The notes under the pieces are model-generated. The model was not told the origin of the DNA, searched no databases, and saw nothing but the letters and a program-made list of their open reading frames with translations. The translations under genes were made by a program, and so were the position numbers. From the IMG/VR virus record IMGVR_UViG_2734482599_000001: a DNA stretch of 19,946 nt. One strand, 5' to 3'. Source of the DNA: a virus (Duplodnaviria; Heunggongvirae; Uroviricota; Caudoviricetes). Positions within the stretch are counted from its first letter, which is position 1. Each line of letters opens with the position of its first letter. Below, piece after piece: positions 3,951 through 19,946 of the stretch.

Positions 3951-4447
3951 TTGTCGGTATACCTCTCTCGTTTGCTCAGTTGTTCAGGAATATGGTGCAG
4001 CAGCTCGCCGTCACCACAGTAAATGGCGGCATGATTCGGCACCGATGAACCAAAACAGCACAGCAGCACATCGCCCGGCTGCGCCGCTGACAACGGCACC
4101 TGATACAGCCCTGTGGCCTCCAGATTATCCAGATAGAGATTCTGACCGTGACGCCACCAGTCATCCTCACGATGAAAATCCGGCATCTCAATCCCCGCCA
4201 GATGGTAAGCATCCCGGAACAGCGTGTAACAGTCCGTCACCCCGTGCTCAAAGCGCCGCCCGGTAAGATGTGGCACACAGCGGAACTTGTGAATCGCCCC
4301 CCGGCAGACCAGCCACCACGGCAAATCACTCTGCACCTGCAGCCGCCGGTCGGCCTCACTCAGCCAGGGCAGACCACCGGGGTGGCTGTGGACCAGTGCC
4401 ACAATCTCACCCTGCATCTCTGCCTGCAGCCAGTCTTCCGGCGACAT
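3848..4447 (-). CDS. K: Tail tip assembly protein gpK (NlpC/P60 plus JAB/MPN-type domains)
   Basis: Within ORF 3848-4945 the in-frame ATG at 4445-4447 gives a 199-aa protein MSPEDWLQAEMQGEIVALVHSHPGG...AASTFV, matching lambda gpK length and sequence. The upstream extension in the ORF track reads through N. Confidence 0.9.
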   Translation of the reverse strand: MSPEDWLQAEMQGEIVALVHSHPGGLPWLSEADRRLQVQSDLPWWLVCRGAIHKFRCVPHLTGRRFEHGVTDCYTLFRDAYHLAGIEMPDFHREDDWWRHGQNLYLDNLEATGLYQVPLSAAQPGDVLLCCFGSSVPNHAAIYCGDGELLHHIPEQLSKRERYTDKWQRRTHSLWRHRAWHASAFTGICNDLAAASTFV

Positions 4448-8248: not shown

Positions 8249-9079
8249 ACCGGACTCCTCCTGCGATCCCTTCTGATACTGTCATCAGCATTACGTCATC
8301 CTCCGTCATGTCCGCCACATCCGGGGAAGCGGGGATAACTTCATTCCCGTCCGGGCCAAAGCGGACACCTCCGGCAAGCCCTGCCGCTTTCTGCATCAGC
8401 ACATCATCTTCAGGCTCTTCGTCAGCCTCGCGCCGGTTCAGCAGACTGAAATCCAGCGGATGCATCTCCGGATCGCTGAAAAACAGGCTGAGCACGGTGT
8501 ACGTCAGCCCGGAAAAGTGCATATCCAGCAGAACATCATGAAAATAATGGGTACTGTAAAAGCGGTGCCAGTCGGCATACTCCGTGGATGACATCCCGGC
8601 AAGCATGGCGCGCCAGTCGGGTCGCCCCATCTCACGCGCCAGTTTCAGGGCAAAACTCAGCTCACCGTCGAACACTTTCCCGCAGAAACAGGCTCTGCAG
8701 GCCCGGCGTCCTCTGCCTGTTCAGGAGCATCATTCACCACAAACTCATACATACCGGACAGCCGGTACACCACGTTTTCAGCATGAGAAATTGCCTCTGT
8801 GGGCCAGGTGGTAAGCACTTCCTGCTCAATCTGTTTAACGGCTTCATTCATGGACGGCATCTGCGTCTTCTTCGGATGGTTATGCCACAGGGACATCGCA
8901 ACCACAAAAGCGCCGGTTCTGATGGCGTCTTCCACAGTAAACTTCCGGTTGCTGTCTGACTCCGCCTGTTCTGCCTGCCGTTTCATCAGGTCGAGATGCT
9001 CAATACGCTGCAGGGCTGACAGTTCAGAAAGCGTGACGGTCACACCGTTATGTTCAAATGATTCGGTTTTCAGGAACAT
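8241..9079 (-). CDS. G-T: Tail assembly chaperone fusion gpG-T, made by programmed -1 ribosomal frameshift at the slippery heptamer (mRNA GGGAAAG, window 8675-8681)
   Basis: The T-frame ORF 8241-8675 (FDGELSFALKLAREMGRPDWRAMLAG...) has no independent start context and overlaps the last 6 codons of G in the -1 frame; the heptamer G GGA AAG sits 6 codons before the G stop, exactly as in lambda. Confidence 0.85.
8657..9079 (-). CDS. G: Tail assembly chaperone gpG (zero-frame product)
   Basis: 140-aa ORF MFLKTESFEHNGVTVTLSELSALQRIEHL...SAGKCSTVS, lambda gpG length and sequence. Confidence 0.95.
   Translation of the reverse strand: MFLKTESFEHNGVTVTLSELSALQRIEHLDLMKRQAEQAESDSNRKFTVEDAIRTGAFVVAMSLWHNHPKKTQMPSMNEAVKQIEQEVLTTWPTEAISHAENVVYRLSGMYEFVVNDAPEQAEDAGPAEPVSAGKCSTVS
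8675..8681 (-). promoter_or_regulatory. Programmed -1 frameshift slippery site (mRNA 5'-GGGAAAG-3') for G to G-T
   Basis: Reverse complement of ctttccc at 8675-8681; zero-frame codons GGA AAG encode the G-K just before the G C-terminus. Confidence 0.8.
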
Positions 9080-9842: not shown

Positions 9843-10238
9843 TCACATTTCATAGATAATGACATAAGTCAGATCGGCTGAACTCCACAGGCCCGCATCA
9901 TCGTCGCGCCGGTAGTCATAGCCGCTGGCCACCATACTGGTGATCAAATCTGACAGTGCCGGGATATCGCTCATCACAGGATAAATCCGGGACTCCATCC
10001 ACGAATCCAGCTCTGAATCCGGCACCTGAGCAGGCAGGAAAACTTCAATATGCAGCTCCGCCTGCCAGGTATCGCTGTCCAGCTCTTCGCCCGTGTATTC
10101 AGCGCCGGTGAGATAAACGGCAATTGCCGGAAAATCTTCCTCATCAAAAACAGCGGGGCGACCATCAAAAAGCGTCGCCCCGGTGTCATGCTTCTCCAGT
10201 GCATCCAGTACGGCTGCACGGAGTTCAGTATGTTTCAT
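9843..10238 (-). CDS. U: Tail terminator protein gpU
   Basis: 131-aa [57 protein letters not shown], lambda gpU length and sequence; 4-nt overlap with Z. Confidence 0.95.
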
Positions 10239-18053: not shown

Positions 18054-18079
<26 letters not shown>

Positions 18080-18599
18080 TCAGCAACCCCGGTATCAGTT
18101 CATCCAGCGCGGCTGCTTTGTTCATGGCTTTGATGATATCCCGTTTCAGGAAATCAACATGTCGGTTTTCCAGTTCCGGAAAACGCCGCTGCACCGACAG
18201 GGGGATCCCGTCGAGAATACTGGCAATTTCACCTGCGATCCGCGACAGCACGAAAGTACAGAATGCGGTTTCCACCACTTCAGCGGAGTCTCTGGCATTT
18301 TTCAGCTCCTGTGCGTCGGCCTGCGCACGCGTAAGTCGATGGCGTTCGTACTCAATAGTCCCTGGCTGGAGATCTGTCTCGCTGGCCTGCCGCAGTTCTT
18401 CAACTTCCCGGCGCAGCTTTTCGTTCTCAATTTCAGCATCCCTTTCGGCATACCATCTTATAACGGCGGCAGAGTCATAAAGCACCTCATTACCCTTGCC
18501 ACCGCCTCGCAGAACGGGCATTCCCTGTTCCTGCCAGTTCTGAATGGTACGGATACTCGCACCGAAAATGTCAGCCAGCTGCTTTTTGTTGACTTCCAT
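18054..18599 (-). CDS. Nu1: Terminase small subunit gpNu1 (winged-HTH cosB-binding)
   Basis: 181-aa ORF MEVNKKQLADIFGASIRTIQNWQEQGMPVLRGGGKGNEVLYDSAAV..., lambda gpNu1 length and sequence; 26-nt overlap with A as in lambda; RBS GGAATGAACA upstream on the coding strand. Confidence 0.97.
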
Positions 18600-18776
18600 T
18601 GTTCATTCCACGGACAAAAACAGAGAAAGGAAACGACAGAGGCCAAAAAGCCCGTTTTCAGCACCTGTCGTTTCCTTTCTTTTCAGGGGGTGTTTTAAAT
18701 AAAAACATTAGGTTACGGCGAAGAAGAACGGAAACGCCTTAAACCGGAAAATTGTCATAAATAGCGAAAACCCGCG
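18600..18776 (-). promoter_or_regulatory. cosB: cosB: terminase (gpNu1) binding region with R1, R2, R3 elements and an intervening IHF-site region
   Basis: Three copies of the Nu1 R-element core (GGAAACG-containing ~16-mers): R1 about 18623-18638 (agaaaggaaacgacag), R2 about 18665-18680 (ctgtcgtttcctttct, inverted), R3 about 18722-18738 (gaagaagaacggaaacg). Positions and orientations match the lambda cosB layout between cosN and the Nu1 start. Confidence 0.85.
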
Positions 18777-18788
18777 CGCCTTCCGCCC
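18777..18788 (-). promoter_or_regulatory. cosN: cosN: terminase nicking site / 12-nt cohesive end (in phage orientation 5'-GGGCGGAAGGCG-3')
   Basis: Flanks align base-for-base with lambda (CGACAGGTTACG on the cosQ side, CGCGGGTTTTCGCTAT on the cosB side), which fixes the 12-nt segment. It reads GGGCGGAAGGCG here against GGGCGGCGACCT in lambda as I recall it. Confidence 0.8.
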
Positions 18789-18830
18789 CGTAACCTGTCG
18801 GATCGCCGGAAAGGACCCGCAAAATGATAA
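18789..18830 (-). promoter_or_regulatory. cosQ: cosQ-containing right-end segment (packaging termination signal region)
   Basis: Reverse complement ...GGGTCCTTTCCGGCGATCCGACAGGTTACG matches the terminal ~30 nt of the lambda right end with 2 substitutions. Exact cosQ limits are given from memory (about window 18812-18818) and are approximate. Confidence 0.55.
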
Positions 18831-18987
18831 TAATTATCATCTACATGTCACAACGTGCATCTACGCCATCAAACCACGTCAAATAATCAATTATGACGCA
18901 GGTATCGTATTAATTGATCTGCATCAACTTAACGTAAAAACAACTTCAGACAATACAAATCAGCGACACTGAATACAGGGCAACCTC

Positions 18988-19221
18988 ATGTCAACGAAGA
19001 ACAGAACCCGCAGAACAACAACCCGCAACATCCGCTTTCCTAACCAAATGATTGAACAAATTAACATCGCTCTTGTTCAAAAAGGGTCCGGGAATTTCTC
19101 AGCCTGGGTCATTGAAGCCTGCCGCCGGAGACTGTGCTCAGAAAAAAGAGTTTCGCCTGAAGCAAACAAAGAAAAGAGTGACATTACTGAATTGCTCAGA
19201 AAACAGGTTAGACCAGATTGA
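18988..19221 (+). CDS. Small ribbon-helix-helix-like DNA-binding protein, YlcI/DUF3950-like prophage right-end protein (77 aa)
   Basis: ATG at 18988 preceded by AGGG about 7 nt upstream. The product MSTKNRTRRTTTRNIRFPNQMIEQINIALVQKGSGNFSAWVIEACRRRL has a basic N-terminus, a beta-strand (NIRFP), helix A, and a G-x-S/N-x-S-x-W-hI-helix B pattern typical of RHH (Arc/CopG/MetJ) folds. The first ~50 codons correspond to the unannotated small ORF at the lambda right end and to E. coli prophage ylcI-type genes, from memory; the C-terminal 25 aa differ. Confidence 0.6.
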   Translation: MSTKNRTRRTTTRNIRFPNQMIEQINIALVQKGSGNFSAWVIEACRRRLCSEKRVSPEANKEKSDITELLRKQVRPD

Positions 19222-19278
19222 AGCAATTTAGATAATCGTGCAGACTACGCCCCCTCATATCACATGGAAGGTACTACA

Positions 19279-19689
19279 ATGGCTCAGGTTGCCATTTTTA
19301 AACAAATATTCGATAAAGTGCGAAATAATTTAAACTATCACTGGTTTTATTCTGAACTAAAACGTCACAATGTCTCACATTACATTTACTATTTAGCCAC
19401 AGAGAATATTCATCTTGTTCTTGAAAACGATAATACGGTTTTAATAAAAGGACAGGGTAAGGTTGTAAATGTAAGATTTTCAAAAAATAAATGCCTTATA
19501 GAAGCCACCTTAAAAGGATTCAAATCAGGAGAGTTATCATTTTACGAATACAGGAAAAATCTTGCTACAGCAGGGGTTTTCAGATGGATTACAAATATCC
19601 ACGAAAACAAAAGGTATTACTATACCTTTGATAATTCATTACTCTTTACTGAGAACATACAGAACACTACACAAATATTTCCGCACTAA
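19279..19689 (+). CDS. DUF1398 (YbcV/YdfO-like) prophage accessory protein, 136 aa
   Basis: ATG at 19279 with RBS GGAAGG 7 nt upstream; the ORF-track start at 19264 is an in-frame extension. Markedly AT-rich compared with the structural genes. The product [58 protein letters not shown]... resembles what I recall of the YbcV/YdfO DUF1398 family of E. coli cryptic prophages (DLP12, Qin); the family assignment is from memory. Confidence 0.6.
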
Positions 19690-19734: not shown

Positions 19735-19944
19735 ATGATGAAATATGTGTACCCGGTAACCCCGGTGTGCATCGTTTTTGATTATTCCCGCACACTCGCG
19801 CAGAAGGAGTTCCCCGTCGGGCTACGGTCTCTGTTAATACGGGAATACGGCGACGATTGGATTTGCCCCTATATTTCCAGACATCTGTTATCACTTAACC
19901 CATTACAAGCCCGCTGCCGCAGATATTCCCGTGGCGAGCGATAA
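19735..19944 (+). CDS. Hypothetical small protein (69 aa), unknown function; possible prophage moron ORF
   Basis: ORF with in-window stop (taa at 19942-19944); product MMKYVYPVTPVCIVFDYSRTLAQKEFPVGLRSLLIREYGDDWICPYISRHLL has protein-like mixed composition; no clear SD. Not recognised by me as a known family. Confidence 0.25.
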   Translation: MMKYVYPVTPVCIVFDYSRTLAQKEFPVGLRSLLIREYGDDWICPYISRHLLSLNPLQARCRRYSRGER

Positions 19945-19946
19945 CC

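Follow-up and report, generated by a model that had tools for sequence, protein, structure and literature searches.

The closest described relatives of the locus reported here lie in two prophages of Escherichia coli K-12 and in phage lambda. In the Qin prophage, the Nu1 homologue nohA on the minus strand is followed, across a cos region of about 390 nt, by ynfO (b4533, plus strand, 234 nt), a 57-nt spacer and ydfO (b1549, plus strand, 411 nt). In DLP12 the order is nohD–ylcI–ybcW(antisense)–ybcV–borD, and the right end of lambda is arranged likewise. Both ynfO and ydfO stand on the y-ome list of uncharacterised K-12 genes (PMC11551758). A review of lambda gives cI, rexAB, lom and bor as its lysogen genes and does not name genes of the ynfO or ydfO type (PMC7067206).

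Several reports bear on ydfO and its DLP12 counterpart ybcV. Expression of ydfO is induced up to 116-fold by ionic liquid, and the same paper cites YdfO overexpression as increasing resistance to oxidative stress (PMC4077768). Induction of DicC altered four Qin genes, ydfO among them (PMC11430063). Overexpression of ybcV in an ASKA screen gave a glycogen-deficient phenotype in a viable clone (PMC2853380). Genomic SELEX with PdhR yielded one peak listed as ynfO > ydfO, with the motif AAcaGGTcagACCAgaT, and a second in the ybcV/ybcW spacer, with the motif AtcTGGTctgACCtcTT; in a pdhR mutant, ybcV mRNA was down 10-fold (PMC7660256).

The window (the whole stretch of 19,946 nucleotides that was analyzed, from a Caudoviricetes record of IMG/VR) carries lambda-type packaging genes near its right end, terminase A and Nu1 (18054-18599; Pfam Phage_Nu1, E 2e-101), both on the minus strand. 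Across cos from Nu1 are two plus-strand ORFs of 77 aa (18988-19221) and 136 aa (19279-19689), separated by 57 nt. These positions, and an orientation opposite to that of the morphogenesis operon, had been given by a first-pass annotation of the DNA and were confirmed. The two genes and their arrangement are already known, as they are the ynfO and ydfO types catalogued in K-12, and of 5426 complete E. coli genomes, 5211 contain a match to the 1.35-kb region. Because Qin has the same layout and lambda and DLP12 have the same genes, the pair is not unique to this phage. The first-pass annotation had also called it the only part of the window outside core lambda morphogenesis, which is wrong in the sense that the lambda right end carries homologues of both genes; ynfO- and ydfO-type genes are nonetheless accessory genes. 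The GC content is 54.2% for the whole window, 52.7% for Nu1, 44.4% for the small gene and 31.4% for the DUF1398 gene, and the description of the latter as AT-rich and cassette-like stands. The reading that we prefer, with a probability of about 0.7, is that the locus is the Qin-type form of a non-essential lambdoid accessory region, made of two separable modules, of which the DUF1398 cassette is independently controlled.

The cos elements are context for this locus and lie outside the cassette. Alignment to lambda, PhiR49_1 and the locus L004 placed the equivalent of the 12-nt cohesive end, cosN, at 18777-18788 on the minus strand. It reads GGGCGGAAGGCG on that strand versus GGGCGGCGACCT in lambda; of the fetched loci, 8 have this variant and 72 have the lambda type. 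The heptamer AGGACCC, the reverse complement of GGGTCCT, at 18812-18818 aligns with lambda 48473-48479 (coordinates converted from the match of the lambda small ORF, 48157-48303), which we take to be the position of cosQ. Against Rfam, the only matches were hairpins in cosB (18618-18685) that stayed below threshold.

The 77-aa protein is a member of the DUF3950 / YlcI-YnfO family, scoring above the curated cut-offs of both Pfam DUF3950 (PF13132; 72.8 bits with a cut-off of 25, E 2e-20) and NCBIfam YlcI_YnfO_N (NF041551; 35.2 bits with a cut-off of 30), and it also matches PHROG 949 (E 6e-33). The family is tiny, with 110 cluster representatives among 1.84 billion proteins, and the nearest database clusters are 96% identical to the window protein. 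Comparison across phages divides the plus-strand gene into a conserved DUF3950 domain, codons 1-50 (18988-19137), and a variable C-terminal tail (19138-19218) that differs from phage to phage. In a diverse alignment the domain reads K-x-I-R-F-P-x-x-L-I-E-x-I … N-F-S-A-W-V-x-(E/D)-A-C, its halves joined by a loop of variable length. The protein is strongly basic (pI 10.9). Compared to the copy in a Stx phage, the gene shows 11 synonymous and 6 non-synonymous differences among 50 codons, and among 17 distant DUF3950 homologues the differences at codon positions 1, 2 and 3 number 2418, 1634 and 4661. Both ORFs of the pair are genuine coding genes. In the lambda reference record, the corresponding ORF (48157-48303) is left unannotated.

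The small protein had been described as ribbon-helix-helix (RHH)-like, and this description holds for its pattern. Compared to RHH proteins such as Arc, Mnt, CopG, ParD and MazE6/7, it has a similar size, a basic N-terminal arm, the strand motif K/R-x-I-R-F-P, two helices and a polar N-cap, N-F-S, on helix B. An AF2 model of the monomer gave an extended basic segment (residues 1-18) and two helices (19-32 and 34-52), with a pLDDT of about 82 in the core, and an extended arm with two helices would be the expected look of an RHH monomer modeled without its partner strand. Statistical support did not follow. In contrast to what would link it to the solved RHH proteins, no sequence or structure match reached significance: hhalign placed its IRFP on the LRWP of Arc below significance, and Foldseek returned only matches with E > 3, with ParD antitoxins on top and MazE among the weak fold matches, which were enriched in RHH antitoxins. 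A profile search of PDB and Pfam with the diverse DUF3950 alignment recovered nothing except DUF3950 itself, and a structure search of BFVD gave no match. DUF3950 presumably belongs to the Pfam clan Met_repress. An RHH fold is plausible and, in our judgment, probable.

The region 5′ of the small gene (18820-18987, plus strand) is near-invariant and is a candidate promoter/operator. It contains an inverted repeat (18886-18898 / 18906-18918) and the palindrome ATGATAAT-A-ATTATCAT (18824-18840), both of which are candidate target sites. A promoter scan of its plus strand found no strong sigma-70 consensus for the small gene. A terminator scan of the plus strand found none after the small gene and none after the DUF1398 gene, beyond 19689.

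The 136-aa protein is a full-length member of DUF1398, the family of YdfO, YbcV and YcgX. It aligns with Pfam PF07166 over profile positions 1-119 of 119 (147.1 bits with a cut-off of 22, E 3e-43) and, over residues 1-135, with the solved NMR structure of YdfO (PDB 2HH8, E 2.9e-67). The earlier assignment to the DUF1398/YbcV family was therefore upheld, as was the remark that the family has no assigned function, which agrees with the y-ome list (PMC11551758). The gene (19279-19689, plus strand) is preceded by GGAAGG, and an upstream ATG at 19264 offers an alternative start that would give 141 aa. With a pI of 9.4 and no hydrophobic segment (the top 19-residue hydropathy is 0.39), the product is predicted to be soluble and cytoplasmic. 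The labels "putative envelope protein" and "head protein" are unsupported for DUF1398 on account of that pI and the lack of a hydrophobic segment. The first of these labels comes from lambda records, and the second from PHROG 413, from which it has spread into RefSeq phage records. An AF2 model of the protein was poor (pLDDT 48.9).

The DNA at the junction of the two genes suggests a control region that belongs to DUF1398. A PdhR-type box, AACAGGTTAGACCAGAT, at 19202-19218, with its GGTnnnACC core at 19206-19214, overlaps the last codons of the small gene and corresponds to the motif assigned to the K-12 PdhR SELEX peaks. Overlapping this box are promoter-like hexamers, TAGACC-16-GATAAT (19209-19236, plus strand), with 9 of 12 matches, which by themselves are no functional proof. 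The Qin-type and lambda-type blocks that precede DUF1398 both keep GATAAT. Of 125 DUF1398 upstream regions, most have the GGTnnnACC core, and at least 25, a number based on the listed variants only, have lost it. The block that accompanies DUF1398 measures about 75 nt. In lambda, the sequence GGTCAGACCAGATTGA, which holds the last codons and the stop of the 77-aa form, is retained together with the block up to the DUF1398 start, while the remainder of the small-gene tail has been replaced. Because lambda keeps GGTCAGACCAGATTGA and the block in front of DUF1398, the contiguous arrangement of Qin and the window looks ancestral. The center of the PdhR box lies about 30 nt 5′ of the putative start, a position that suits repression better than the reported activation.

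The boundaries of the modules were observed in a mosaic alignment of the window with lambda, PhiR49_1, K-12 Qin, phage 1H12 and one Stx2a phage. Phages with a Nu1-type cos hardly differ between cosQ and about codon 50 of the small gene; in the Stx phage, the homologous stretch does not extend upstream of the small gene's ATG. In all of these comparisons homology stops at about codon 50, and the tails beyond it differ. On the other side, blastn of the right flank identified a conserved segment 3′ of the DUF1398 cassette (19747-19857) that marks the right edge of the polymorphism and matches Stx2a_WGPS8 (L127 3961-4072), 1H12 (L128 467-566) and PhiR49_1. In phages that lack DUF1398, the homologue of this segment sits directly 3′ of the small gene, so DUF1398 is a clean presence/absence cassette. 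In phage 1H12, for example, the DUF3950 gene is followed by bor and the DUF1398 cassette is absent. In Stx2a_WGPS8, which also lacks the cassette, 41 bp separate the DUF3950 gene from an HNH endonuclease–terS–terL module, and nothing is annotated downstream of the DUF3950 gene on its strand.

The distribution of the two genes is likewise decoupled. Among phage records, 155 have the DUF3950 domain and 43 have DUF1398. Complete E. coli genomes contain DUF3950 DNA at 9861 sites, spread over 4184 genomes, and DUF1398 DNA at 8879 sites, spread over 5376; many of these DUF1398 sites are the orphan ycgX, beside bluR, without a DUF3950 neighbor. Integrase–AlpA–primase satellites yielded distant DUF3950 homologues (35-45% identity), which run antisense to the operon of alpA and primase; within 4 kb of 27 such loci, DUF1398, Nu1, bor and ybcW are all missing. 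Counting against decoupling, in each complete cos-proximal DUF1398 locus that was fetched the small gene precedes DUF1398 in the same orientation, and a regulatory link may therefore exist in those phages; the 80 closest loci are, however, a skewed set in which near-identical alleles dominate. A species-wide scan for DUF1398 loci returned only Escherichia and Shigella plus one paralogue of 49% identity, and was swamped by lambda control DNA from unrelated assemblies. Two apparent DUF3950–DUF1398 fusion proteins, P0134 (233 aa, 761 members) and P0130, were rejected as Rosetta-stone fusions; they are gene calls that read TGA as tryptophan, since the DNA has TGA at the W position and translation with table 11 fails. 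Taken together, the small gene is the part that stays fixed at the edge of the packaging module, with DUF1398 as one exchangeable cargo among several.

These results bear directly on the idea that the two genes form a dedicated regulator–effector or toxin–antitoxin unit, as the first-pass annotation had suggested. It had named co-occurrence across prophages beforehand as a refuting test, and conserved pairing was found to be largely absent; with 155 records as against 43, and with each gene also found alone, a dedicated unit is not supported. In its regulator–effector form, the idea would make YnfO an autoregulatory RHH repressor or activator that directly controls the adjacent DUF1398 gene, the two acting jointly in lysogenic conversion or superinfection exclusion. 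The shared strand, the 57-nt spacer without a terminator, the small gene upstream in every complete cos-proximal DUF1398 locus that was fetched and the RHH-like pattern of the small protein are what such an operon would look like. We nevertheless consider it unlikely, for several reasons. First, the small gene is about 3.6 times commoner than DUF1398 in phage records and also occurs alone or with other genes, and DUF1398 occurs by itself as ycgX. Second, a 560-bp antisense module splits the genes in lambda and DLP12. Third, the distant DUF3950 homologues are never paired with DUF1398 (27 of 27). Fourth, DUF1398 is preceded by a conserved block of its own that includes a site for a host transcription factor.

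A second alternative assigns a role to the small protein without its neighbor. According to this idea, the DUF3950 protein is a boundary or packaging-associated factor of lambdoid prophages and their satellites and does not regulate the cargo; it would bind near cos, or damp read-through into the terminase genes in the lysogen. It draws on the gene's position, which is the same beside two unrelated packaging modules (lambda Nu1/A and HNH–terS–terL), on the near-invariance from cosQ to codon 50 amid varying neighbor sequence and on the antisense placement of the satellite homologues against the alpA–primase operon. The argument is purely positional. No common binding site is evident, because the upstream DNA of the Stx phage is unrelated, and no cos-like sequence was found near the satellite DUF3950 genes. 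To our knowledge, moreover, lambda cos function is classically assigned to cosQ, cosN and cosB only. We regard this possibility as very doubtful. If it were true, the protein could shield the lysogen from stray terminase expression or take part in helper–satellite cross-talk, and DUF1398 would be merely one interchangeable downstream cargo among several.

A third proposal is that DUF1398 is an effector of anti-phage defense or superinfection exclusion encoded near cos. Its AT-richness, its variability and its place among prophage accessory genes would suit such a role, and its divergence from lambda is fairly rich in non-synonymous changes (33 codon differences, versus 21 synonymous). PADLOC, however, gave no match for the small protein, and for DUF1398 only Csx23 at E 0.023 and 12.7 bits, which is below meaning and no family match. 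None of the papers in the library that was searched reports an anti-phage or exclusion phenotype for DUF1398. The reported control by the pyruvate sensor PdhR and by stress, and a metabolic overexpression phenotype, also speak against a defense effector, which we judge highly improbable.

In RHH antitoxins, the toxin is normally bound by the C-terminal tail. A type II toxin–antitoxin system, in which YnfO would be an RHH antitoxin neutralizing a DUF1398 toxin, resembles such systems in gene order (a small basic protein first), in the sizes of the proteins and in the best, non-significant fold matches (ParD and MazE antitoxins), but it is scarcely credible, given that the YnfO tail varies between phages independently of DUF1398, that each gene is found without the other, that PADLOC gave no meaningful match, that the ybcV ASKA clone grows with a glycogen phenotype only (PMC2853380), that YdfO overexpression is cited as protective against oxidative stress (PMC4077768), and that YdfO is presumably overproducible, since its NMR structure has been solved (2HH8).

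The reading of a Qin-type accessory region with two separable modules can be put together as follows. The region would sit between the lysis genes and cos of lambdoid phages as an accessory, non-essential segment, and neither module would be part of the late transcript, because both are transcribed against the late operon. The first module, ynfO/ylcI, would supply a basic DUF3950 domain of about 50 residues, most likely a dimeric RHH DNA-binding protein; this domain appears to be the constant element where the lysis/accessory region meets the packaging genes, and its C-terminal tail would be whatever sequence lies past the recombination junction at about codon 50. The second module would be the AT-rich DUF1398 cassette (ydfO/ybcV), present or absent between related phages. 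With its own upstream block, PdhR-type box and GATAAT, DUF1398 is likely to have its own transcription, tied to the carbon and stress status of the host, and its product may serve as a fitness factor of the lysogen. The gene identities, the layout variants, the mosaic junctions and the decoupled occurrence are results of this analysis; we infer that YnfO binds DNA, that ydfO has an independent promoter and that the genes are expressed in the lysogen.

The main use of this analysis is a correction: neither annotation nor further work should treat the two genes as a toxin–antitoxin system or a dedicated regulator–effector unit. Its discovery value is small, because these are catalogued y-genes of K-12 and lambda that belong to Pfam families, with one solved structure. 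Of the two products, the small DUF3950 protein is the more constant and the more interesting. What interest is left lies in a DUF3950 gene that is unannotated in the lambda reference, stands about 200 bp from cosN and has homologues in satellites.

Compared to Qin, the window has the same gene order, strands, gene lengths and 57-nt spacer, and an opposite-strand Nu1 homologue across a cos region of about the same length. It differs in three respects. First, its DUF1398 allele shares 80.8% nucleotide identity with ydfO, and 34 of 136 codons differ non-synonymously. Second, while Qin is a decayed remnant, the genes of the window adjoin a full lambda-type morphogenesis operon. Third, its cosN is a sequence variant. 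Identity to lambda is 98% for the DUF3950 domain (residues 1-49) and 76% for DUF1398; lambda and DLP12 also share with the window the cos-side position, the orientation and the DUF1398 upstream block with its PdhR-type box. Unlike the window, they carry a module of about 560 bp with antisense ybcW between the two genes, which replaces the small-gene tail and leaves a 64-aa YlcI, and they have bor after DUF1398; the window has neither ybcW nor bor.

Compared to the lambda morons bor and lom, which have defined products and phenotypes, DUF1398 has neither, and no terminator was found here. It resembles them in its atypical composition, its presence or absence in related phages, its orientation against the late operon and a possible promoter of its own. 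Its atypical GC content and its presence or absence at a fixed site are features that the DUF1398 cassette has in common with morons.

The DUF3950 gene (YlcI/YnfO family) and the DUF1398 gene that follows it share one reading frame, being separated only by a TGA and a 57-nt spacer that contains no stop codons (19219-19278). Large database clusters include an apparent fusion of the two domains (P0134, 233 aa, 761 members) with tryptophan at the position of this TGA; such clusters reflect gene calls under a TGA=Trp code, and DUF3950–DUF1398 fusion proteins were rejected.

Contigs of about 3.5 kb in many unrelated bacterial assemblies showed more than 99.5% identity to one 3447-bp stretch of the lambda right end, or to whole lambda. 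Retrieved loci with such a nearly lambda-identical contig fall within L016-L044 (e.g., L021, an Arcanobacterium "plasmid", and L026, L028, L029, L034, L042, and L043). The right-end contig, which we take to be the nanopore lambda control amplicon, holds exactly the DUF3950 and DUF1398 gene pair and so accounts for database entries that place "YlcI/YnfO" and "DUF1398" in Staphylococcus, Arcanobacterium, Metarhizium, and other organisms. In lambda itself, the DUF3950 ORF lies at NC_001416 48157-48303 (window 18988-19134), for which the reference lambda records have no annotated feature, and labels for DUF1398 vary among "putative envelope protein," "head protein," and YbcV.

Distant DUF3950 homologues of 58-67 aa are found in integrase–AlpA–primase satellites (L133-L159, at approximately 4001-4190 of each locus), on the strand opposite to the alpA–primase operon and nested within long antisense ORFs. 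A Pfam search of these antisense ORFs gave no match, and codon-position statistics favor the small DUF3950 frame. In vB_KppS-Ant, it is the antisense ORF that is annotated and not the DUF3950 homologue.

To the right of the cassette, homology of most relatives to the window ends at 19857. The final ~89 bases (19858-19946) match a fragment of a tail-fiber chaperone ("chaperone of endosialidase") in strain IH5, where that fragment sits on the other side of nohD, and the sole match of the ORF at 19735-19944 is the C-terminal end of PHROG 20197. These observations suggest a rearrangement junction right of the DUF1398 cassette.

On the cos side, the long hairpin GAAAGGAAACGACAG … CTGTCGTTTCCTTTC at 18618-18685, which drew terminator-like calls on both strands and only sub-threshold Rfam microRNA-like matches, belongs to the lambda cosB region and lies outside the two-gene cassette. 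Directly past cosQ, within 18824-18851, is a perfect palindrome, ATGATAAT-A-ATTATCAT, which by eye resembles a Fur box (14/19 matches to the consensus; 15/19 for the lambda copy). It shares bases with a promoter-like sequence on the minus strand in the same interval (GTGACA-16-TATCAT, 10/12 matches), which would be directed through cos into Nu1.

Compared to lambda, the cohesive end of cosN (18777-18788, read on the minus strand) is changed at 5 of 12 positions, being GGGCGGAAGGCG in the window and GGGCGGCGACCT in lambda, and the sequence on either side is lambda-like. Among the retrieved loci, the window-type cosN is present in 8 viral contigs and the lambda type in 72 loci.
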